Translations under genes and position numbers: made by a program
Shown: positions 2 through 33,378 of the stretch, piece after piece
Position numbering within the stretch: the first letter of the stretch is position 1
Layout of the letters: the number at the start of each line of letters is the position of its first letter
Origin: Candidatus Krumholzibacteriota bacterium
GTDB lineage: Bacteria; Krumholzibacteriota; Krumholzibacteriia; JAJRXK01
Direction: 5' to 3'
NCBI GenBank assembly: GCA_963727455.1
Contig: CAVSGG010000018.1
Coordinates: forward strand, 1-52,972
DNA length: 52,972 nt
Notes under the pieces: model-generated
What the model was told of the DNA's origin: nothing
Seen by the model: the letters and a program-made list of their open reading frames with translations, nothing else
Database searches by the model: none

Positions 2-1231
2 CCAAAAGGGGTACTGAGCATCTTCTGTCCCCGCCAACTTGACAGGTTCCGGCTGATCGAGCTTGCGCAGCCACAGCATGTGCGTGCCGCTGGAGTCGCG
101 CGCACCGAAGACGATGGAGCGGCCGTCGGGAGAGACGACGGCGGGCGCCGGATTCGCTCCGTTCAGATGAAAGCCGGTGTTTTCCGGTGGCTCGATGGAG
201 CTGCGCACCACACCAAGTCTCGCGCCGTCGGGCGACGAGGCGCCTCGCCCCATCACGAACGAGACGACGAGAGCCAAGGCAAACACCGCCGCGAGTCCCC
301 AGGGAAGCAACCGCGCTCGTTTCGAAAGAGACGACACGCCTTCCTGTGCTTCCTGCGCCAAGGAGGCGTTGAGGGTGAGGCTACTCGCGGGATCCTCGAG
401 CAGGATACGGGCTTCGCCTATGTCTCTCAAACGCAGCTTGGGGTCGCGCTGCAGGCAGCGTTGCAGGAGCAAAGTGAGAGCGGGCGTCAAGTTGCCCGGT
501 AGGCGGTCGAAGTCGAGGTTCTCCTTCAGTACGCCGGCCAAGATCTCCGACACCGATTCGCCGGTGAAGAGCGGCTTGCCACCTAGCATCTCGAAGAGGA
601 TCACCCCAAAAGCCCAGATGTCGGCCCGGCGGTCCACGCGCTTGCCCTTGGCCTGCTCGGGGCTCATGTAGGCCGCGGTCCCCAAGATGGTCCCGGCCTG
701 GGTCATGGCGGCCGTGATGGTGGGGGAATTGACAAGATCGTCCTCGAGGCCTGAATCACCGGAATAGGCGCGCGCCAGCCCGAAATCGAGGATCTTCACC
801 GTACCGTCGGGCGCGAGCTTGACATTGGCCGGCTTGAGGTCGCGGTGCACGATGCCCTCTTCGTGCGCATTTTCCAGCCCCAGAGCCATTTGACGCGCGA
901 TTTCGGTGGCTTCGTCCACCGCGAGAGGGCCCTTTGCCAGGCGTGCGCTGAGGTCCTCGCCCTCGGCCAGCTCCATGACCAGGAAGCTCTGACCCCTATC
1001 CTCTTCAAAGCCGTAGATCGAGGCGATGTTGGGGTGATTCAAGGAAGCAAGGACTTTCGCCTCGCGGCGAAAACGCGCCAGCCGTTCCGGATCGCCGGCC
1101 AGATCGAGGGGAAGGAGCTTGAGGGCAACCTCACGATCGAGCGTGGTGTCGCGCGCACGCCAGACTTCGCCCATGCCGCCCTGACCGATTTTTTCCAGGA
1201 TCTCGTAGTGCGAGAGGGATTTGCCGATCAC
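2..1231 (-). CDS. Hanks-type Ser/Thr protein kinase with TM helix and PD40/TolB-like propeller (runs off the window start)
   Basis: Manual translation from GTG at 1231 gives MIGKSLSHYEILEKIGQGGMGEVWRARD, HRDLKPAN, DFGLA and GTAAYMSPEQ. These are followed by a hydrophobic helix and SPDGRSIVF...LWLRKLD...AQYPFW. Absent from the ORF track because it has no stop inside the window. Confidence 0.93.
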   Translation of the reverse strand, partial: MIGKSLSHYEILEKIGQGGMGEVWRARDTTLDREVALKLLPLDLAGDPERLARFRREAKVLASLNHPNIASIYGFEEDRGQSFLVMELAEGEDLSARLAKGPLAVDEATEIARQMALGLENAHEEGIVHRDLKPANVKLAPDGTVKILDFGLARAYSGDSGLEDDLVNSPTITAAMTQAGTILGTAAYMSPEQAKGKRVDRRADIWAFGVILFEMLGGKPLFTGESVSEILAGVLKENLDFDRLPGNLTPALTLLLQRCLQRDPKLRLRDIGEARILLEDPASSLTLNASLAQEAQEGVSSLSKRARLLPWGLAAVFALALVVSFVMGRGASSPDGARLGVVRSSIEPPENTGFHLNGANPAPAVVSPDGRSIVFGARDSSGTHMLWLRKLDQPEPVKLAGTEDAQYPFW

Positions 1232-1391: not shown

Positions 1392-2237
1392 ATGAAGAAG
1401 TACGCTTTGTTACTGCTATTGGCCTTCGGAGTACTCGCCGCGAGTTCTCCGGCCATGGCAAACCACTACACGGAATTCACGCCCACTGCGGATTGCTCGG
1501 GTTGGTGCGTTTCGGGCACGGTCGATCTTGTGGGCGATCCTTACGCAGACATCACCTACACCGTCACGCTCAACGATGGCAATTCTGACGTCAAAACCTT
1601 CAGCGACCAGATCCACATCACGCCCGAAGGACTCAGCTTTAACGTGTGCGCGGACTGGGGAATGGACCTCTGTGGGGACTACACTGCCAGCGGTTCCTTC
1701 GTCTTGCAGGGTCCCAACGGTGGTGACACCAACGGTTTCCAGATCTCCTTTAGCTGCGATTGTCCTCCTCCTCCTCCGCCTCCGTCTGGAGACGCGTGCA
1801 CTCGCACTCCCGGCTACTGGAAGAATCATGACTGGCCGGTCAGCAGTCTGACGGTGGGATGTGAGGAGTACACGATGGCTGAGGCCATGGACGTTCTGTG
1901 GATGCCCGTCCGAGGTGATGCCACGATCATTCTGTTCAAGCATCTCGTTGCGGCCAAGCTGAACGTCCTCAGTGGATCAAGCACATCCATTTCGGACGAC
2001 ATCGACGCGGCCGACGATTTCCTGTGCGATCATCCTCTCTTCAGCAAGCCGTCTGGCGATCTGAAGACGGAATGCAACAGTCTCAAGGACGCTCTCGCGT
2101 ACTACAATGAGAGTAATGACTGCGACGGCGGAGACTACACGAGCGGAGCGGTTCTGCCTCTCAGCTCGTCCAAGACTCCGGCGCAAGGGCAGTCCTGGGG
2201 CTCGGTGAAAGCCTCCTACCAGGACAACAACAAGTAA
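1392..2237 (+). CDS. Secreted Cys-rich protein with poly-Pro linker, TPGYWKNH domain and C-terminal SWGxVKxxY tail
   Basis: Signal peptide MKKYALLLLLAFGVLAASSPAMA. Two domains joined by CPPPPPPPS. Ends TPAQGQSWGSVKASYQDNNK. Followed by a terminator. Confidence 0.85.
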   Translation: MKKYALLLLLAFGVLAASSPAMANHYTEFTPTADCSGWCVSGTVDLVGDPYADITYTVTLNDGNSDVKTFSDQIHITPEGLSFNVCADWGMDLCGDYTASGSFVLQGPNGGDTNGFQISFSCDCPPPPPPPSGDACTRTPGYWKNHDWPVSSLTVGCEEYTMAEAMDVLWMPVRGDATIILFKHLVAAKLNVLSGSSTSISDDIDAADDFLCDHPLFSKPSGDLKTECNSLKDALAYYNESNDCDGGDYTSGAVLPLSSSKTPAQGQSWGSVKASYQDNNK

Positions 2238-24926: not shown

Positions 24927-25103
24927 GTGAATTGGAAGCGTGATCATTGGCTCTTCATGGGCCTCCTCTCGATCGTATTGGGCTTCTTGCTTCTCGGGCT
25001 CTTTCGCAGCACGACGCTCTCCAGCATTCTGCTGGTGGGCGGATACTGCGTGCTCGTGCCGGCATATCTGTGGACGCGCTACCGTGGGGACGTGGGCGAA
25101 TAG
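24927..25103 (+). CDS. 58-aa two-TM membrane protein (DUF3098-like), overlapping tRNA-Val
   Basis: MNWKRDHWLFMGLLSIVLGFLLLGLFRSTTLSSILLVGGYCVLVPAYLWTRYRGDVGE. GGAGG upstream. Not in the ORF track. Confidence 0.72.
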   Translation: MNWKRDHWLFMGLLSIVLGFLLLGLFRSTTLSSILLVGGYCVLVPAYLWTRYRGDVGE

Positions 25104-25170
25104 CTCAGCTGGTTAGAGCACCTGCCTTACAAGCAGGGGGTCACAGGTTCGAGTCCTGTTTCGCCCACCA
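25094..25170 (+). tRNA. tRNA-Val(TAC)
   Basis: GGGCGAA/TTCGCCC acceptor stem, anticodon loop CTTACAA, GGTTCGAGTCC T-arm, encoded CCA. Confidence 0.97.
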
Positions 25171-25509: not shown

Positions 25510-26142
25510 ATGTTCAAGAAGAGGCTATTCAGTCTCGTACTCACTGCGGGCCTGATTTTGGGTCTTGCTGGCCTCGCAATGGCCGGTGTCCCCGATGCTG
25601 GGAAGAGCGTTGCCTACACCAATGGTGGTGTGGCGACGATTACCCCTGGTGGTGCGGCCCCGAGTCTCGCAAGCTATAACGTGGTTGTCACAGTCACGGT
25701 TCGCGACGGAAATAACCTGCCGATTCCGGCATATCCTGCGCAAGATATCTGGCTGGATGACAATGGCAGCGCCGACATCAACCTTTGCCAGTCCGGTGGC
25801 ACCGCGGATGCGGCGACCGACGGCGCTGGCTTCACCACGATCAGTGGCGTCTTGCGCGGTGGGGGTGCTACGCAGTCCGGCATGGCCGTGTACGTAAGTG
25901 GTGTTGCGGTTGAGGGACCCAATGGGACTCCTGGTGTTGCCAAGAGCCTCGCCATCGATGTCAACAGCCCCGACATGAATAAAGACCGGGCTGTAGACTT
26001 GAGTGACATCGCTCTGTTTGCGGCCGCTCTTCAACCGCCGCACAATGGTTTCGCAGCTGATTTCACCCATGATACGCCCAACAACGTAGACTTGAGTGAC
26101 ATCGCTCTTTTCTCGTCTTGGATCGGTGACTCCTGTCCGTAA
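25510..26142 (+). CDS. Secreted Ig-like protein with C-terminal dockerin-like domain
   Basis: Signal peptide; beta-rich VTVTVRDGNNLPI...ATDGAGFTTI; two Ca-loop/helix repeats DMNKDRAVDLSDIALF and DFTHDTPNNVDLSDIALF. Confidence 0.8.
   Translation: MFKKRLFSLVLTAGLILGLAGLAMAGVPDAGKSVAYTNGGVATITPGGAAPSLASYNVVVTVTVRDGNNLPIPAYPAQDIWLDDNGSADINLCQSGGTADAATDGAGFTTISGVLRGGGATQSGMAVYVSGVAVEGPNGTPGVAKSLAIDVNSPDMNKDRAVDLSDIALFAAALQPPHNGFAADFTHDTPNNVDLSDIALFSSWIGDSCP
25993..26108 (+). repeat. Exact 23-bp direct repeat encoding the two dockerin halves
   Basis: GTAGACTTGAGTGACATCGCTCT at 25993-26015 and 26086-26108. Confidence 0.95.
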
Positions 26143-26250
26143 ACGAGAGACTGTGAGGTTTTGGGTGCGGTCTGCGCACTCGTTTTCGAGCAAGCGTGCG
26201 CCAGTGTTCACATAACAACCATTGGCTCACCTCTCTAAAGGAGATGGCTC

Positions 26251-26823
26251 ATGCTTAAGAAGGCAATGTTTCTCACCCTCGTCCTGCTCGTAGGGGTCGT
26301 AGCGGCTGCTTCAGCGCAAACTGGCTGCACGCTCGGTGTCTATGCGGACGAAGGAGGGACGAACCCGGTCGTATTCCCAGTACGTGATTACGGCAGCACA
26401 ACTGCGACCTTCGACGTGTATTATGTAATGCGCGTCGAAGATGTGGTTCTGGGTGCTGCTTGGTACCGTGACATCACTGGCTTCCAGGCCGTGACGCAAT
26501 CCATCGATTGGCAGTCGTACGGTACCTTCCTGGATGAGCAGCCCGAGGGCTGGCGTATTGGGCTTGGTACGTGTCAGGTGGGGTACGGTGGCGCTGCCAT
26601 CACCCTCCTGAAGGAGACTATCACGATTCTGGATGATTACTCTGGAGGTACCGGGACGATCCAGGTTATCCCGAACATAATCCAGCCACCCACGAACGTG
26701 ACAACGTACGCAGATTGTACGGGTGTCCTAAAAGAATGCCCCACTATGGGTTCTTTGACGATTGAGAGCGTCATTCCCGCCCCTGGCAAGAGCTTTGGTG
26801 CGGTGAAGGCTCTGTTCAAGTAA
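26251..26823 (+). CDS. Secreted beta-rich (possibly cohesin-like) protein with SFGxVKxxF tail
   Basis: AAGGAG RBS, signal peptide, LGVYADEGGT...FDVYYV, ends IPAPGKSFGAVKALFK. Confidence 0.82.
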   Translation: MLKKAMFLTLVLLVGVVAAASAQTGCTLGVYADEGGTNPVVFPVRDYGSTTATFDVYYVMRVEDVVLGAAWYRDITGFQAVTQSIDWQSYGTFLDEQPEGWRIGLGTCQVGYGGAAITLLKETITILDDYSGGTGTIQVIPNIIQPPTNVTTYADCTGVLKECPTMGSLTIESVIPAPGKSFGAVKALFK

Positions 26824-27032
26824 AGTAGCTTTTGGCCCCCAAGGCGCCATTTGCTATCGCGATCGCAACGGGTGGGTGGCGGAGAGTCCCGAGGGACTGG
26901 ACGCCATCCGCCAAAATTCCGCCTGAGATCTGCTCAATAAGGGGCACATTGAAGGCACATCAAAGGCATCCGTGGGCTGAGATCCTTGTGGCTCCCCACC
27001 GCCTTGTTGTCATGACAACGGAGGACTTCTTC

Positions 27033-27704
27033 ATGAAGAAGCTAATGATTCTCACCGCAGTTCTCGGCATCCTCGCCATGGCTTCCATGTCGTTTGCCCA
27101 GAACATCGGTTTGACGTTCGACGAGGCCGGGACGACCACGGTCATCGACGGCCGCTCGGAAACCATCCCCAATCCTGACTTTTTCAACCTCCCCTCGGTC
27201 AACGTGTGGGTCGTCGCGTACGACCTTTCCGAGCTCTTCGGGTACGAGTACAATGTGTCCAGCTCGGACGCTACGGCCAACGCCGCCACTCCGGTCGTCT
27301 ACCCCTCAACGGCGCAGGACTTCGGCAACCATTCGATCGGTGACGTTCGTGCCGGTACCGGGGTTTGCTTCCACCAGGGAGATGCCGAGGCGGGACCCGA
27401 TCCCACGCACATCCGCCTGGCGAAGCATACCTTTACCTGGGGTGCCCTCCCGACGCTGGACGTGCTCTACTGCATCGGACCCTCGATCGGTTCGGGTGCG
27501 AGTGTTCCGCAGTACGCCATGTGCAATCAGGACGCGACCAAGGGACCCTTTGGAATCGCGAACGTTTCCCAGGACACCTGCACCCCTAACGGTTGCGCGG
27601 CTGTCGTTTTCGAGTGGGATGATGCCACGACTCCTACCAACTGCCAGCGTGACGTTGTCGGTTCGCAGGAGAAGAGCTGGGGTTCTTTGAAGTCCAGTTT
27701 CTAA
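27033..27704 (+). CDS. Secreted beta-rich (possibly cohesin-like) protein with SWGxLKxxF tail
   Basis: GGAGG RBS before ATG 27033, signal peptide, IGLTFDEAGT...VNVWVV...LFGYEY, ends VGSQEKSWGSLKSSF. Confidence 0.82.
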   Translation: MKKLMILTAVLGILAMASMSFAQNIGLTFDEAGTTTVIDGRSETIPNPDFFNLPSVNVWVVAYDLSELFGYEYNVSSSDATANAATPVVYPSTAQDFGNHSIGDVRAGTGVCFHQGDAEAGPDPTHIRLAKHTFTWGALPTLDVLYCIGPSIGSGASVPQYAMCNQDATKGPFGIANVSQDTCTPNGCAAVVFEWDDATTPTNCQRDVVGSQEKSWGSLKSSF

Positions 27705-27742
27705 GCTAGATCTGAGCGATTCTTCCTCATCGAGGAAGCTGA

Positions 27743-27777
27743 CGCGGCTCCGAGAACTCGGAGCCGCGCTCATTTTT
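27743..27777 (+). terminator. Probable terminator
   Basis: CGCGGCTCCGAG-AA-CTCGGAGCCGCG followed shortly by TTTTT. Confidence 0.75.
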
Positions 27778-28077
27778 GCCCCGAGGGGATCTGGCCTGTT
27801 GCGAAGGCCCTCCAATTCGTATATTGCCAACGCTCCATCCAATTGGAGCGGCAGGAGTTCCCAAATCGAGCCGCCGCGGGAATTCCCTTGACCTCACCGG
27901 GGGTGCATGGTACTTGAGACCTGATTCCATGGGATGCGCGGCTTTCCTTCGTTGGCGAGGCGGCGTGGTTTTTTGAGCCGCGACGTGGAAATCTGGACAA
28001 TCGTGGCTCTTATCCAAACGGCCCTGCGCGCGAGTTCGCTGCGCGGATGGGCCCGGGATCTTCAGAAGGAGTTTGGT

Positions 28078-28833
28078 ATGAGGAAGACGGCCATCGGCGT
28101 TCTGCTTGTCTTGGCGATGGCAGCGGGGTGGTTTACCCCCGCCGCAGCATCTGCTCCGCCTTACAATCCATGGGGCTGGATGTACCTGAGTACGGAGCAG
28201 GGACACTACACCTGCAGTGGTACCTACAACGCTGGCGATAACCTGCAGATTTTCGTTGTTCTCGAGTGTCCCAACTGGGGTAGTGCCGACGCCTACTTCG
28301 CCATGGAGGCAGGAGTCACCTATCCTACGCAGCTTTTCAATACGCGCTTGGGCGCCGATGAAGCCCCAAATGCGCAGTTCTTCCTTGCCAGCTGCACCGG
28401 CGGGCACTGTTCGTGGGCCATGGGTACGGGGACACCGATCTATACCAATCCATGGACAGCGGTGACTTTGGAATTCGTCGGTTTCAACGATTTGGTGAAC
28501 CTCGGTTTCAGCCTGACGCCGCGGGACGACTATAGTTTGCCCACCTTGGGCGGCCCCGGCTGGGCGTACTACGATCCACAGAATCCCGTAACACTTCCGC
28601 TGCAGGCCGGCGACGGCACGGACGCGCATCCGGGGTGGCAACAGGGTTTCGTCATGGTGAACTACGATAATACCGCCGCGATGACGAATGATGCTAATTT
28701 CCCGGATACGGTCTTCCGCGATGACGGATCGGGAGCTCCCTGGCCGCTTTTGAGCGAGGGCGACCCCTGCCTTCGCAACAAGATCGTTCCCTCCCAGGAG
28801 ACCTCCTGGGGCTCCCTGAAGGCGGCCTACTAG
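28078..28833 (+). CDS. Secreted beta-rich protein with SWGxLKxxY tail
   Basis: AAGGAG RBS before ATG 28078, signal peptide, LQIFVVL...AMEAGVTYP, ends VPSQETSWGSLKAAY. Confidence 0.82.
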   Translation: MRKTAIGVLLVLAMAAGWFTPAAASAPPYNPWGWMYLSTEQGHYTCSGTYNAGDNLQIFVVLECPNWGSADAYFAMEAGVTYPTQLFNTRLGADEAPNAQFFLASCTGGHCSWAMGTGTPIYTNPWTAVTLEFVGFNDLVNLGFSLTPRDDYSLPTLGGPGWAYYDPQNPVTLPLQAGDGTDAHPGWQQGFVMVNYDNTAAMTNDANFPDTVFRDDGSGAPWPLLSEGDPCLRNKIVPSQETSWGSLKAAY

Positions 28834-28865
28834 GAGTCTTCGGTTCGATCGTGAATCAGTAGGAG

Positions 28866-28893
28866 GAGGAGAGCCCGCGGGCTCTCCTCTTTT
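28866..28893 (+). terminator. Rho-independent terminator
   Basis: GAGGAGAGCCC-GC-GGGCTCTCCTC then TTTT. Confidence 0.8.
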
Positions 28894-28931
28894 CGCGCCC
28901 ATGGCGGCCGTCGGGGGAAAGCGGCTCCGAA

Positions 28932-28961
28932 TTGACCCGGGCTTCCCTCTGCGCCTATACT
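28932..28961 (+). promoter_or_regulatory. sigma70-like promoter of the C25 peptidase gene
   Basis: TTGACC-18nt-TATACT. Confidence 0.6.
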
Positions 28962-29079
28962 TGCATCATGGCTGCCGGCCGGCCGGCCTGGGTGGGCTCG
29001 CGCTGAGGAGTGAATCCCGCGGTGGGGTCCCGGTGCCAGCTCCCTCCCCTGAAGAACCCTCTGAGACAAGGATCGGCTC

Positions 29080-32000
29080 ATGCCGCGTCATATCCGTTTG
29101 CTCCTCTGCCTCGCCGTGGTTCTGACCCTGCACGCTCGAGCCGCTTGGTCCAGTGTTGCTCCTAGCGGATGGCAATTGCTGGAGAGTACTCCCGAGCGTC
29201 TTCGTCTGCGCATCGAGGTGCCGCCCGCTAGCGTAGAGACGGTAATGGTGGGGGGGAGAAGCTACTCCGCGCTGAGCGTCCCCGGGTATTTGCCCCTGGG
29301 CGAACCGGGGCTTCCCCTCTTGCCCCAACGCGGGGCGTGGATCGGGCTCCCTCCCAGTGGAGAGGCACGGGTCGTAGTGGAGCAAGTGACCACTCGCCCC
29401 CTGCAAGTTGCTCGTCTTTTGCCCTATCCCACCCCCGTCGCTCCCACTCCGGGGGAACGGCTCCAACTGGAGAGTGTGGCTGAAAAGACCGTGGAGGGCC
29501 CCGGCTATCTCAGCTTCTCCAGTGGAAGCGACGAACTCGCGACCCTGGGCAGTGCGGTCTGGTCGCACGGGCAGCGCATGGCACCGCTCCGGCTTCGACC
29601 CTTCCTGGTGGACTCACCGAGCGGGCCGGTTCAACAAATCAGCTCGGTGGAGATCGTGGTCGAATTCCCTTCGGCGAGCGTGAGCGCTCCCGCAGCGGGT
29701 AGTTTGGACGCGGAGACTCTCGCCCGTGTTCTGAACCCGAAGATCGCGGGGCGCTGGCATGCGGAGAGCCCGCAGACGCGACTTCGACGCTCTGCGGTTC
29801 TTGAGGCTTCTCAGCTTCAGAAGTCCGCTACGGCGGCTCGCGCGGCCGATGAGATCATTCCCATGGACGAGTTGACTCTCTTGAGTGACGAGTATCGAAT
29901 TCCCGTCGCCACGAGCGGGTTGGTTCGCCTTCACCTGGTGGACCTCTTCGGTACCCTCGGATTTCCCGGAGGGATCCGCCATGAACAACTCAGGTTGTAC
30001 CAGAAGCGGCCCTCGCCTCCGGGAAGCAGCAGCTACCCCAATCCCCTGAGCGTCGACGTTCCTTTCCACTTCTTCGGCAACCCGGATCCCCAGAGCGAAA
30101 TCACCAGCAGCGACATCATCATCTTCGAGGCGACCTCTCTCGCGCGCGACAATGTCGTGCGGACAGTGGGAGCGGGGAGCTTCCCGGCGGCCATGAGTGA
30201 GAGAGCGGACAACTACAACGCGAAGAACGTGTACTGGTTGGCCGCAATCGAGCCCAGCCTCGGAGCTTGGGCCAGGATGGACTCAGAGAGCTTTGGCGCT
30301 GCCAGCGGCACGCTGCACCAGTACTACGATTACGAGGAGAGCTTCAGTCAGGACGTCTATTACCAGCCGCATCCGGCGAAGGTGGAGGACACTTGCTACC
30401 TCTGGAATTCCCCGTTCGCCACAGATACGAGGCTTCCTCTCAGGCTCAGACCGCTCGACCCGAGTTCTCCCATCGTGGTGCGATGGGTATTTGCCAGCAG
30501 TTTACATTCTCCGGTGACCGCCCCGGTGGGCCAAGAGCTGGCGACCAGTTTCTATCTGGAAAACGAGGACGCCAGCGATCGCACCCTACTGAAAACCCTG
30601 AACATCGGCGATGCCACCGGCGCCGGCAATCCAGGAACCTACAGTACTCCCACGGCGGTCAGCGATACGGTTGCCGCGGGAATTTTCGCGGCGGGTCCCA
30701 TCCGCTTTCGCTTCCACAACGTGAGCGAGAGTAGCTATTTGTCTCACTACGCTATGCTCGACAGCGTGAGCCTCCGCTATCGCGCAGCTTACGCGGCGGA
30801 CTTCAATCGAGCGGTTTTCAACACGGGGGTGGTTTCCCAAGAGGCCAGTCTCTCCATTCCGGGTTTCGATTCGCCGGAGATCTTCCTGCTGGAGACGAGC
30901 GATCCCCGGGCTCCGCGTTGGGTCGATCTCGCCCCGGAGAATCTGGTGGACGATGGTGGTTCGACTTCGCTCAGCTTGCAAATTCCGCCGCAGGGACAAT
31001 CTCCGCGCTCCTTCGTGGCCTTGGCTTCGGTAGAGATTCCCCGGATCAATCAGACGGAAATCTCGCGCACTTCCACGACGGTTCTCACCGCGAGCATGGA
31101 TCCCTCACAGGTGTTGGTGATCGGACCCCGGCAGTTCGAGAGCGCCATGCAGCCCTGGCTCCAGTGGCGTCGCGACCACGATCGTGACGGTTGGAACTAC
31201 GCCTACGTGGACGTGCAGGAAATCTTCGACCAGTTTTCCGGAGGACTGCGCGCACCCTCCGGCATCAAGGAGTTTCTGCACTACGCCTATAGCATGTGGG
31301 ACGCGAAGGCGGTGATGCTGGTCGGAGATGCCAACGAAGACCATCGTCGCATCGTGCGCGAGAACAACCAGATTGCCGGACCAGAGGATTTCGTTCCCTG
31401 TCCGGTCCATCTCCAGTACTACGGAGATTTCGAAGTCATAGCTTCGGACAAGTGGTATGTGCTCTTCGACATCAACGACACTCGCTATCCCAGCTTGCTC
31501 AACAAGGGACCCGACATGCTATTCGGTCGTTTGCCGGTGCATGACGCGGCCGAAGCCGCCTCCGTGGTGGCCAAGATCATCGCCTACGAGCAACCCACGG
31601 CAGCACAGACCTGGCGCAAGCGCGCAATCATGGTGAGCGATGACGCCTACAGCACGGGGTTGTTCTTGGGAACGGGTCAGGAACAGGTCTACGAGAAGCA
31701 CAGCAGCGAGCTGCGTTTTCAGTCCGTGCAGGCGCAGCTGGCAGATCAGGAGTCGAATTTCCTGGACGGCGCCATCGACGGTACGACTTGGGCCTTGGAT
31801 GATTTTACTTCGCAAATTCGGGGAACGGACACCTCTTACCCCATCAGTTTCCTCAACTATGTGATCGACGAAGTGGCATCCACCGTCCGTCCCCAGTTCC
31901 TGGCCACGCTGGGACAGGGTGCCTTTTTCGTGAGTTATCAAGGTCACGCAGCCTTCAACGTTTTTGCTCACGAAAGGCTCTTCGAATACCGGCCGGGGTC

Positions 32001-33378
32001 CCCTTCACCGGTGGGAACCATCGGAAACGACGGCAAGCCATTCCTGTTCTTCGGTATGGGCTGTCACATCTCGGATTTCATTCGTCCCTACGATCTCGCC
32101 TCGAACGAATCGCGTAGTTTTGGGGAAGCGCTGCTGCTGCATCCCACCGCCGGCGCAATCGGGGTCTACGCGAGTAGCGCCTTCGAATTCCTCTCACCCA
32201 ACGTTAGCTTTGGAATCGTGATAGGGAATGCGTTCTTCGGCGATACGAGCGACGGACAGGTTCTGGGAGCCAACGATGCTAAGTGGATCGTCGGCGATGT
32301 ACTGGCGCAATCGGAATGGGACCTCCTCTCGGCAGCGTCGGCGCAGATCCCTCAAATGATTGCTCAGTATGAATTGCTGGGTGATCCTCTCCTGCGTTTG
32401 GATGCGGCGCCACCGCGCGTGAGCGTCAAGAGCGATGGCGTAGATGTTGCGGATGGCGCCTCGGTACTCCCCGCTGGGGGATCGCGCACTCTCTCGTTGA
32501 GTGTGGGCGCCATCGATGAATCGGGCGTGGACCGCATCGAGTTGCGTGGGATCTCCGACGGGCAGACCACCGAGCTGAGCGAGCTCCTGGTGGCCCAGAG
32601 CGGGGCGGGAATTGACGCCCGTAACGCATTGTCAATAGCTAACTTGCCAGTACAAGCTCGGGGACGCGATGGCGGCGTCAGCTACCAGCTGCAGGTCTAC
32701 GATCGGGCCTATCCGCAGCGCCGTCCCGCAACCTTCAACTTCAAGGTTCCGTTCGAGCTCGCGGTGGACGTGGATGGCGAAGCTCTACCGTCCGAAGGAC
32801 ACGAAGTACCAGCTGGCACCACCAGCGCATTCGCGCTCGACTTCACGAGTCCCATCACCTTGAGTGACACGGAGATCGAAGTGGAGCTCACGGGTCTCAC
32901 GCTACAGGGCACCCTCGACAAACAGATGCAGGACGGCGAAGGTCGTCACTGGATCGTGAGTTTTCAGGCGAGCGGTTCGGCGGGGAGCCAGCAGCAGAGC
33001 ATCCTCTTGAAGCTCGCAGGAAGCGAGACCGAAATTTCCTTGGCCGGATCCATTGCTCCAGTCGCTCTCGCGATCAAGGATCACTTTCCCATTCCCAATC
33101 CCGTCGATCCGGCGCAGGGTGGTGCTAAGATCGTGGTGGATCTCACGGTTCCCGCAGCCTGGGCGCGAGTGACGATCTACGACCTCAGCGGGAGACCGGT
33201 GAAGAGCTGGACGGACGATGCTCTGGGATCCGAGACGACCATCGTCCTGCACTGGGATGGACGGGATCGTAGGGGTGACGAGCTGGCCAACGGCACGTAT
33301 CTCTATCGAGTCGAAGTGGCGGGACAGGATGGTCAAGTGCACGGCGGCGACACGGGTCGGATCGTCATCATGCACTGA
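29080..33378 (+). CDS. C25 (gingipain-family) cysteine peptidase, PorU-sortase-like, with C-terminal FlgD-Ig/T9SS-CTD-like domain
   Basis: Signal peptide; propeptide-like GEPGLPLLP; EIFDQFSGG, MLVGDA, SDKWY, GRLPV, catalytic-type YQGHA and MGCH, YELLGDP. C-terminus PIPNP...IYDLSGRPVK...WDGRDRRGDELANGTYLYRV. Confidence 0.88.
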   Translation: MPRHIRLLLCLAVVLTLHARAAWSSVAPSGWQLLESTPERLRLRIEVPPASVETVMVGGRSYSALSVPGYLPLGEPGLPLLPQRGAWIGLPPSGEARVVVEQVTTRPLQVARLLPYPTPVAPTPGERLQLESVAEKTVEGPGYLSFSSGSDELATLGSAVWSHGQRMAPLRLRPFLVDSPSGPVQQISSVEIVVEFPSASVSAPAAGSLDAETLARVLNPKIAGRWHAESPQTRLRRSAVLEASQLQKSATAARAADEIIPMDELTLLSDEYRIPVATSGLVRLHLVDLFGTLGFPGGIRHEQLRLYQKRPSPPGSSSYPNPLSVDVPFHFFGNPDPQSEITSSDIIIFEATSLARDNVVRTVGAGSFPAAMSERADNYNAKNVYWLAAIEPSLGAWARMDSESFGAASGTLHQYYDYEESFSQDVYYQPHPAKVEDTCYLWNSPFATDTRLPLRLRPLDPSSPIVVRWVFASSLHSPVTAPVGQELATSFYLENEDASDRTLLKTLNIGDATGAGNPGTYSTPTAVSDTVAAGIFAAGPIRFRFHNVSESSYLSHYAMLDSVSLRYRAAYAADFNRAVFNTGVVSQEASLSIPGFDSPEIFLLETSDPRAPRWVDLAPENLVDDGGSTSLSLQIPPQGQSPRSFVALASVEIPRINQTEISRTSTTVLTASMDPSQVLVIGPRQFESAMQPWLQWRRDHDRDGWNYAYVDVQEIFDQFSGGLRAPSGIKEFLHYAYSMWDAKAVMLVGDANEDHRRIVRENNQIAGPEDFVPCPVHLQYYGDFEVIASDKWYVLFDINDTRYPSLLNKGPDMLFGRLPVHDAAEAASVVAKIIAYEQPTAAQTWRKRAIMVSDDAYSTGLFLGTGQEQVYEKHSSELRFQSVQAQLADQESNFLDGAIDGTTWALDDFTSQIRGTDTSYPISFLNYVIDEVASTVRPQFLATLGQGAFFVSYQGHAAFNVFAHERLFEYRPGSPSPVGTIGNDGKPFLFFGMGCHISDFIRPYDLASNESRSFGEALLLHPTAGAIGVYASSAFEFLSPNVSFGIVIGNAFFGDTSDGQVLGANDAKWIVGDVLAQSEWDLLSAASAQIPQMIAQYELLGDPLLRLDAAPPRVSVKSDGVDVADGASVLPAGGSRTLSLSVGAIDESGVDRIELRGISDGQTTELSELLVAQSGAGIDARNALSIANLPVQARGRDGGVSYQLQVYDRAYPQRRPATFNFKVPFELAVDVDGEALPSEGHEVPAGTTSAFALDFTSPITLSDTEIEVELTGLTLQGTLDKQMQDGEGRHWIVSFQASGSAGSQQQSILLKLAGSETEISLAGSIAPVALAIKDHFPIPNPVDPAQGGAKIVVDLTVPAAWARVTIYDLSGRPVKSWTDDALGSETTIVLHWDGRDRRGDELANGTYLYRVEVAGQDGQVHGGDTGRIVIMH

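Follow-up and report, generated by a model that had tools for sequence, protein, structure and literature searches.

The 52,972-nucleotide contig CAVSGG010000018.1 from the genome of a Krumholzibacteriota bacterium (assembly GCA_963727455.1), hereafter the window, carries three consecutive genes for small signal-peptide proteins that share one short C-terminal ending, and the gene that follows them on the same strand encodes a 1432-aa cysteine peptidase of family C25. This arrangement raises two questions: whether the ending, here called the tail, is a signal in its own right, and whether the peptidase is the protein that reads it. An earlier note on this DNA, made from the letters alone, had proposed a candidate protein-sorting system composed of the two. 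The window is the entire contig C18 of a genome of 3.46 Mb in 18 contigs (88.9% complete, 6.7% contamination). The analysis described below confirmed the tail as a modular C-terminal tag of the whole phylum and left the peptidase as the leading candidate for its partner.

The tail as a modular C-terminal tag

The three window proteins share an ending of the form [ST]-[WF]-G-x-[LIVM]-K-x-x-[YF], with one extra K in tail protein 1. When 31,019 stop-to-stop open reading frames (ORFs) of the genome were searched with the pattern [ST][WF]G..K..[YF], it was found 34 times within five residues of the end and 4 times internally. A 17-residue profile was then made from the tails and compared with 2942 rough gene calls obtained via a codon-usage model. 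The top 37 matches (17.5-29.6 bits) all lay at most 6 residues from the C-terminus, and the next seven (9.1-5.5 bits) were terminal too; most of these are variants in which I, M or L replaces W, or S replaces G. The first internal match reached only 4.9 bits. With a score of at least 2.5 and a position at most 10 residues from the end, the genome holds about 49 tail proteins. A crude signal-peptide heuristic flagged 35 of these 49 vs 846 of all 2942 proteins; when start codons were picked in favour of a signal peptide, the count was 34 of 41, which is biased and includes two evidently false ORFs. In the three window proteins the signal peptides are evident by inspection. What the earlier note had said of three consecutive signal-peptide proteins with a common tail was thus borne out, as was the enrichment of the tail at the C-termini of exported proteins. 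Two of its three tail sequences are as written, and the third, that of tail protein 1, has one K more than noted.

A Gln directly after an A-x-A-type cleavage site was detected with a simple expression in 15 of the 49 tail proteins, for example at window positions 27033-27110. This resembles the 'Q-rule', which the accessible part of the source gives for Bacteroidetes and not for the Fibrobacteres-Chlorobi-Bacteroidetes (FCB) group as a whole (PMC5837995).

The passengers that bear the tail are diverse. After removal of signal peptide and tail, 36 tail proteins fell into 25 groups without a BLAST link at E 1e-3, and the largest group had 7 members, window protein 2 among them. Analysis of 33 tail proteins with Pfam left 24 without a family; the families found were Cohesin (2), Beta_helix/NosD (3) and LTD (1), together with a near-threshold DUF4114 match and an OB-fold match. 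For tail protein 2, 29 homologues were retrieved from public metagenomes, none of them named, and the tail was kept in all 19 aligned sequences, with W217, G218, L220 and K221 invariant. In the same resource 72 of 88 β-helix homologues and 111 of 120 DUF4114-like homologues ended in the tail, those without it being mostly truncated or near-variants. The tail is very probably a genuine modular signal and not the ending of a particular family. Two further carriers were observed. One is a 405-aa C25 peptidase (C17:46077-47294) whose own C-terminus is a tail variant (..SLGGLKARFGRH); it has Ser in place of the catalytic Cys, and the gene directly after it encodes a protein with the T9SS (type IX secretion system) C-terminal domain (CTD). 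On contig C7 an AcrB-family ORF (174367-178344, minus strand) runs without a stop into a tail-protein gene, whose own signal peptide lies about 1100 residues in.

The anatomy of the tail was investigated on 150 distinct tails, 47 from the window's genome and 103 from other genomes. The eight positions that precede the W/F hold P, V/I, P/A, T/A, E/Q, E, x and S/T, and they are followed by [WF]-G-x-[LIVM]-K-x-[LAMS]-[YF]. No residue follows the aromatic in 73 tails, one follows in 42, two in 16 and three to nine in 19, and where extra residues are present R or K is the commonest first one (38 of 77 tails). Cysteine is absent from the eight residues before the W and occurs at positions -14 to -7 in 86 of the 150 tails, a stretch where the folded domain seems to end. 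When 25 tails from eight families were aligned, G and K proved invariant and W at least 90% conserved.

Tail protein 2 was modelled with AlphaFold2 from a 19-row alignment (mean predicted local distance difference test score, pLDDT, 83.7). The model showed a β-sandwich core at residues 25-193 with a pLDDT of about 90, a linker at 210-216 with a pLDDT below 50, and a low-confidence helix in the tail at 212-223 that was not packed on the domain, which suggests that the tail is joined to the folded passenger by a flexible linker and lies outside it. The top Foldseek matches of the core in the PDB were cohesin modules (E 6e-5, probability 1.0, target-normalised TM-score 0.5-0.68). Against Pfam the protein matched no family at E <=0.01, Cohesin (PF00963) included, and the likeness is one of fold only. 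Neither a transmembrane helix nor a basic cluster was found after the motif, where 0 to 3 residues follow in 141 of the 150 tails and nine at most, and models of sorting signals with a transmembrane helix (LPXTG, PEP-CTERM and similar) did not match the tail proteins. The earlier note had set the tail apart from these two classes on the same ground.

Across the phylum, a relaxed DNA pattern ([ST]-W-G-x-[LIVM]-K-x-x-[YF]) was found in all 208 Krumholzibacteriota genomes, typically with 10-90 matches vs 0-3 in a backward control. A minority of genomes stayed at the control level, for example those of genus g51 with 1-8 matches and genomes G016 and G154 with 1 each. In a cluster of one g51 genome (L039, genome G109, family f7) the tails read T-W-T-x-[LV]-K-N-L-F-D, with Thr for the otherwise invariant Gly, and the pattern cannot match them. 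A strict version, which accepted W alone and only tails that stop immediately at Y/F, was found in just 87 of the 208 genomes. The tails in genomes negative for it vary: F may replace W, S or T may stand at the G position, or one to two extra residues may be present, so that the strict-pattern result is void as a test of co-occurrence. The ESM Atlas neighbourhood of tail protein 2 contained Krumholzibacteriota-labelled clusters only, which says nothing on the tail itself. No curated model was found to touch the tail in NCBIfam (8 tail proteins, E <=10) or in Pfam, and a literature search yielded, in the accessible portions of its sources, no description of such a tail or of protein sorting in Krumholzibacteriota. 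The tail is therefore a confirmed phylum-wide modular C-terminal tag, apparently undescribed in databases or literature.

Tail, CTD and the neighbouring peptidase

Components of the T9SS were identified in the window's genome. SprA was matched with 555 bits summed, and PorU is encoded at C5:368695-372117 (449.3 bits, cut-off 420). The gene directly after this true porU gave the best of eight PorV-like matches (100.6 bits, cut-off 250). All eight lie on contigs other than the window, and the window peptidase has no neighbouring porV gene. The order of porU and the PorV-like gene (C5:368125-373242) is that seen in Bacteroidota, and several other PorV-like genes adjoin CTD genes. The model of the type A CTD (TIGR04183) had 54 matches in the genome, 51 of them over the cut-off. 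It did not match the three window tail proteins, nor any of 8 tail proteins at E <=10, and the overlap of the 49 tail genes with 53 CTD genes was zero. Tail proteins had a median length of 243 aa vs 824 aa for CTD proteins.

Tail and CTD were also found to replace one another on related passengers. The β-helix homologue P0105 aligns over residues 9-366 with the tail protein C6:8380-9540 up to the point ..F-x-P-[FM]-x-D, where the tail linker begins; past that point P0105 runs on into a CTD (about 100 aa, matched by FlgD_ig). Three paralogue pairs within the genome have the tail in one member and the CTD in the other. The tail-bearing C25 protein and a CTD-bearing C25 protein on contig C10 share 44% identity over 352 aa, and two further tail proteins have passenger homology to CTD proteins. 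The exchange rests on four cases. It fits the 'choice of anchor' pattern that would be expected of sorting signals, and is hence in keeping with such a role for the tail. Tail genes also lay directly beside a CTD gene in 8 cases vs 1.7 expected, a number reached by 0 of 5000 random sets. Six of the eight pairs have the same direction, with one 4-bp overlap and gaps of 43-247 bp in the others.

The 1432-aa protein encoded after the window tail genes matched Peptidase_C25 (PF01364) at residues 679-1107 with 192.8 bits (cut-off 23, E 1.4e-56), and FlgD_ig at residues 1345-1414 with 30.5 bits (cut-off 27). Its C-terminus matched TIGR04183 with 21.4 bits by hmmscan, under the cut-off of 23, and with 25.9 bits, over it, in the genome search. 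The candidate catalytic residues, His956 (YQGHA) and Cys995 (GMGCH), were invariant in 16 of 16 members of the clade described below and in a 14-row alignment. In the genome's PorU, and in four of its five other paralogues, a His and a Cys occupy the aligned positions, the fifth having Ser for Cys; in total the genome has seven C25 peptidase genes, the window's included. The family assignment, the two catalytic residues and the FlgD-Ig-like C-terminus given in the earlier note all agree with these results. Its term 'PorU-like C25 sortase' needs a correction. The protein is a C25 paralogue of PorU with an intact catalytic dyad, and it is not PorU itself: an assignment to PorU (NF033707) was rejected with 165.4 and 133.9 bits vs a cut-off of 420, and one to the PorU2-related family (NF052324) with 78.5 bits vs 450.

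The relationship of the peptidase to the other C25 proteins was examined with a tree of the catalytic domain (FastTree, 443 columns, 32 sequences, midpoint root). Twenty-six clade sequences, from families f1-f5 and f7-f9, grouped apart from PorU and the 5 other paralogues of the genome at a support of 0.992, and the branching inside the clade followed the families. On this tree the clade is a separate, vertically inherited paralogous lineage. Around the catalytic residues it has Q-[GST]-H-[AS]-[NA], mostly QGHAN, and G-C-H, where PorU has GHGS and SCD. The N-terminus is divergent, and the N-terminal half of the window peptidase gave no clear orthologue in f3 or in genus g33 of f5. The predicted complex of peptidase residues 540-1200 with tail protein residues 24-224, with both alignments, had a score of 0.01 (mark 0.32) and counts neither way. 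A close relative has its orthologue of this gene interrupted and spread over two frames (L037:12069-16353; G025:C6:50926-54517), with one TAG in the match.

Linkage of tail genes to this clade was followed in 31 loci with a clade member, 20 of which had been selected via the peptidase alone. One to seven tail genes lay upstream on the same strand in 26 of the 31, and the gap between the last tail gene and the peptidase was mostly 55-380 bp, with five larger gaps of 1.0-3.6 kb. Among the loci selected via the peptidase alone, tail genes were found with a strict expression in 15 of 20; the variant tails of L070 end in SL-I/C, without an aromatic residue, and counting this locus gives 16 of 20. 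The remaining four are three f2 loci and one f9 genome. Adjacency was observed in seven families (f1, f3, f4, f5, f7, f8 and f9). Starting from the tail, f3 loci selected only for tandem tails had the peptidase just downstream in 4 of 8 cases, and loci of genus g33 in f5 selected via tail-pattern matches had it in 3 of 6. Tail clusters without a C25 peptidase of the clade were also found (L034-L036, L043, L044, L047, L049, L051, L054, L058 and L059). The adjacency that the earlier note saw at one locus is thus conserved in seven families, with tail genes and peptidase apart in f2.

Role of the tail and alternative explanations

The role of the tail is probably sorting or anchoring. We prefer, tentatively and at a little under an even chance, the reading that it is a modular sorting or anchoring tag read by a dedicated partner, with the neighbouring C25 peptidase as the leading candidate. 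The tail of about 17 residues, with the consensus x-[VI]-[PA]-[TA]-[EQ]-[ED]-x-[ST]-[WF]-G-x-[LIVM]-K-x-[LAMS]-[YF] and mostly 0-3 residues after it, would then serve on Sec-exported proteins as a phylum-wide alternative to the T9SS CTD. A dedicated partner would read it, and the passenger would be sorted to, or fixed at, the cell envelope or surface. The candidate reader would be the peptidase, as a presumably ancient paralogue of the T9SS sortase PorU. Because the peptidase carries a probable CTD of its own, it should itself reach the surface; it may bind the tail, cut in or before it, and release or transfer the passenger, much as CTD cargo is handled by PorU. The peptidase is the best candidate partner because it is a PorU paralogue with intact catalytic residues before whose gene tail genes keep a conserved place; that it is the partner is possible but rather doubtful. 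A complete second surface-sorting pathway beside the T9SS, in which the linear tag on 10-90 exported proteins per genome is processed by a dedicated PorU-paralogous C25 sortase, seems fairly unlikely.

The closest known system is the T9SS, in which the sorting of CTD cargo by PorU is known in Porphyromonas gingivalis and Flavobacterium (PMC8545088, PMC4804311). Like PorU, the window peptidase is a C25-family enzyme with a probable CTD of its own, and the tail cargo likewise has a Sec signal peptide and a C-terminal signal without a transmembrane helix. The genome moreover holds SprA, PorU, a PorV-like gene and CTD proteins, and homologous passengers exchange tail and CTD. In contrast, the tail has about 17 linear residues and matches no CTD model, whereas the CTD is a folded β-sandwich of 70-100 aa; the window peptidase stays far below the PorU cut-off and forms its own clade with other catalytic motifs; and the window has no PorV-like match.

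Other C-terminal sorting signals contain a transmembrane helix and are each paired with an enzyme, as in LPXTG with sortase, PEP-CTERM with exosortase and GlyGly-CTERM with rhombosortase. As in these systems, a short C-terminal motif is present here on many unrelated exported proteins of one genome, and the gene of the candidate enzyme adjoins a few of the presumed substrates. Unlike them, the tail is followed by neither a hydrophobic helix nor a basic cluster, and in place of a membrane enzyme the candidate here is a C25 peptidase, soluble and with a probable CTD.

Several observations weigh against the peptidase as the reader of the tail. Merely 3 of the about 49 tail genes in the window's genome adjoin a clade peptidase, and none of the other six C25 genes of the genome has a tail-protein gene as direct neighbour, while one carries the tail itself. 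In f2 (3 loci) and in one f9 genome no tail gene was found within the fetched peptidase locus, and the f2 genomes hold 3-32 pattern matches. The flanking RuvX, MltG and tRNA-Val genes are syntenic too in f1, f7 and f8, so that part of the conserved adjacency may be general collinearity. Given the enrichment of tail genes next to CTD genes, the peptidase may be just one more CTD protein, and the tail genes adjacent to it could be tied to it for reasons other than the tail, the modelled one being cohesin-like. A surface enzyme could not reach the tail proteins if these stay periplasmic, and no outer-membrane route is known for them. The cluster may not be a single operon, as tail gene 2 is followed by a strong terminator-like hairpin and the peptidase gene is preceded by a promoter-like site. 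Finally, the peptidase catalytic region was matched at E <=1e-10 in 206 of the 208 genomes, mostly at clade level, and the weak f2 matches are clade members according to tblastn on f2 loci and the tree. Since tail and clade are both present throughout the sampled families, a test of their co-occurrence, as suggested in the earlier note, finds no presence/absence contrast inside the phylum.

The main rival to the peptidase as reader is a tag for docking or anchoring that stays uncleaved, the peptidase being tied solely to its own neighbouring proteins; we regard it as possible, if on balance rather unlikely. A receptor at the surface or in the outer membrane, either an adjacent CTD-bearing partner or a PorV-like barrel, would hold the passenger non-covalently, and the peptidase cluster would be one of several pairs of a tail protein and a CTD protein. 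The excess of tail genes beside CTD genes, mostly in the same direction, is in line with this, as are the eight PorV-like matches of the genome and the distance of the majority of tail genes from the peptidase. The near-invariant W, G and K on unrelated passengers point to a protein reader rather than to lipid, which also suits a receptor. A docking tag leaves unexplained why, in seven families, the peptidase gene keeps its place immediately downstream of tandem tail genes. It also lacks a recurrent candidate receptor beside the tail genes, unless the whole class of CTD proteins is counted: among 286 neighbours of tail genes, the recurrent ones other than CTD proteins were 5 membrane fusion protein (MFP)-like periplasmic adaptors, 4 and 3 ATPases and permeases of ATP-binding cassette (ABC) transporters, and 5 Ser/Thr kinases, and none was judged enriched.

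A reader could be dispensed with if the tail were a short amphipathic in-plane membrane anchor that tethers exported proteins to a membrane face without an enzyme, like the C-terminal helices of Escherichia coli PBP5 or the membrane-targeting sequence of MinD. The low-confidence helix predicted for tail protein 2 and the basic residues that often follow the tail agree with such an anchor, and read as a helix the tail would have W/F, [LIVM], [LAM] and Y/F on one face with the Lys beside it. Anchors of this kind, however, usually conserve amphipathicity and not identity, whereas G and K are invariant in the 25 aligned tails and W is nearly so; the acidic, Pro/Thr-rich stretch before the tail is conserved likewise, and nine residues are very short for an anchor. 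We consider this explanation improbable.

The arrays of one to seven small β-sandwich genes directly before a C25 peptidase recall type V pili of Bacteroidota, in which the pilin is cut by a gingipain, likewise of family C25, with an exchange of C-terminal strands. By this precedent the small proteins would be subunits of a surface polymer matured by the peptidase, with the tail as donor strand, and the alternation of small and hydrophobic residues allows the tail to be read as a strand. The likeness extends to the position of the peptidase beside tandem small β-sandwich surface proteins with a conserved C-terminal segment. Yet the same tail occurs throughout the genome on β-helix, LTD, C25 and other non-pilin passengers, the fold of the model is like that of cohesin modules and not of type V pilins, and the model gives a helix instead of a strand. 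Two of the three window proteins have no evident lipoprotein signal, and tail protein 1 has a Cys five residues after the ..ASA of its signal peptide. A surface polymer is thus highly improbable.

Least probable is that the tail serves quality control in the periplasm, where a PDZ or tail-specific protease would recognise it much as DegS reads outer-membrane-protein C-termini that likewise end in an aromatic residue, or else that it is the conserved end of one large paralogous family, of which the 7 paralogues of the largest BLAST group might be taken as a sign. The carriers form 25 unlinked groups with several Pfam folds, the 1-9 residues after the aromatic in 77 of 150 tails make a reader of the free carboxylate unlikely, and we know of no precedent for a degradation tag that is built into 10-90 proteins of each genome and retained phylum-wide.

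Gene cluster of the window and wider meaning

The cluster consists of five same-strand genes, whose coordinates are given in Table 1 together with further features of the window. The span 25510..33378, which the earlier note had assigned to the tail cluster, does contain the three tail genes and the C25 gene; its first gene, however, lacks the tail. Pfam and NCBIfam scans gave no name to any of the four small cluster proteins. The start of tail protein 2 was placed at the MKKL codon from a homologue alignment. Tail protein 3 was the top match of the tail profile with 29.6 bits, and tail protein 1 scored 20.7 bits with its tail 1 residue from the C-terminus; orthologues of the latter with the same tail are present in L033 and L037.

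Table 1. Positions of the cluster genes and other features in the window.
Feature	Position (strand)	Description	Detail
Dockerin-like gene	25510..26142 (+)	210 aa, signal peptide, two DLSDIALF-type repeats, no tail	ORF
Tail protein 1	26251..26823 (+)	190 aa, ends ..GKSFGAVKALFK	tail about the last 18 residues, nt 26767-26820 (..IPAPGKSFGAVKALFK)
Tail protein 2	27033..27704 (+)	223 aa from MKKL, ends ..EKSWGSLKSSF	tail nt 27651-27701 (..VVGSQEKSWGSLKSSF)
Tail protein 3	28078..28833 (+)	251 aa from MRKT, ends ..ETSWGSLKAAY	tail nt 28780-28830 (..IVPSQETSWGSLKAAY)
C25 cysteine peptidase	29080..33378 (+)	1432 aa	catalytic domain nt 31114-32400; His956 31945-31947; Cys995 32062-32064
Probable T9SS-type C-terminal domain of the C25 peptidase	33094-33327 (+)	CTD model match	
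Further tail protein	1392..2237 (+)	281 aa, ends ..SWGSVKASYQDNNK	21.2 bits, no Pfam family, not adjoining a C25 gene
Terminator-like hairpin	27743..27768 (+)	11-bp stem, 9 G-C pairs, then T run	directly after tail gene 2
tRNA-Val (anticodon TAC)	25094-25170		between MltG-like gene and cluster

The product of the first gene matched Dockerin_1 (PF00404) with 13.8 bits (E 0.068, cut-off 22.9). Among its positional orthologues the one in L039 reached 26 bits and four others had no match, so that one of the six dockerin-like cluster proteins tested (the window protein and its orthologues) passed the cut-off. A gene with an ending of the type ..NLSDF..H..C was found upstream of the tail genes in L060-L065, L069-L071 and L039. 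The surface-anchoring scaffoldins of cellulosomes have a cohesin module followed by an anchoring signal, as in ScaE of Ruminococcus flavefaciens with its LPXTG motif. The cohesin-like fold modelled for tail protein 2, the two other tail proteins that match Pfam Cohesin and the dockerin-like first gene resemble this arrangement. It differs in that the window proteins match no Cohesin model and that, unlike in cellulosomes, no carbohydrate-active enzymes were seen in the cluster. A classical cohesin-dockerin system was unsupported genome-wide, with 0 Dockerin_1 matches and 1 Cohesin match.

With the hairpin after tail gene 2 and the promoter-like site upstream of the peptidase gene, 'gene cluster' is a safer term than 'operon'. 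Terminator-like sites overall were in no excess (6 vs 5.7 in shuffles). Contigs of one RNA library cover positions 25621-27697 with 0-4 differences each and end just before the hairpin; they also lie on two short pieces of 28078-28833, and none lies on the peptidase gene. As RNA libraries can contain DNA and absent cover proves nothing, this is a weak hint of expression. At the position that corresponds to the window tRNA-Val, ORFs of the f8 locus L065 have a translation that suggests a tRNA gene.

A near-copy of tail protein 2 was observed at C17:18296-18967, with 98% identity to the product of window 27033-27704 over 173 aa, in a three-gene tail cluster without a C25 gene. It could stem from a recent duplication or, given the contamination of the bin, from a second strain. 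At the other end of the window a Ser/Thr protein kinase gene (2-1231, minus strand) is divergent from the further tail gene. Kinases of the same BLAST group lie at most four genes from tail genes at the start of C1, at about 300 kb on C9 and at about 142 kb on C12, and were not judged enriched.

C-terminal sorting signals allow the surface and secreted proteomes of unculturable bacteria to be predicted, and the known classes (LPXTG, PEP-CTERM, the T9SS CTD and others) each brought their own enzyme and biology. In a whole uncultured phylum, a sizeable part of what is exported bears the tail. Current annotation misses it, and most of its carriers are annotated as 'hypothetical'. If the tail is indeed read by the PorU paralogue, C25 'sortases' would have diversified to read very different signals, and the system would be the first of sortase type in a diderm bacterium to act on a short soluble peptide tag, a tag small enough to be of use for surface display or processing. 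Even without the link to the peptidase, the tail profile would at once improve the annotation of Krumholzibacteriota genomes.

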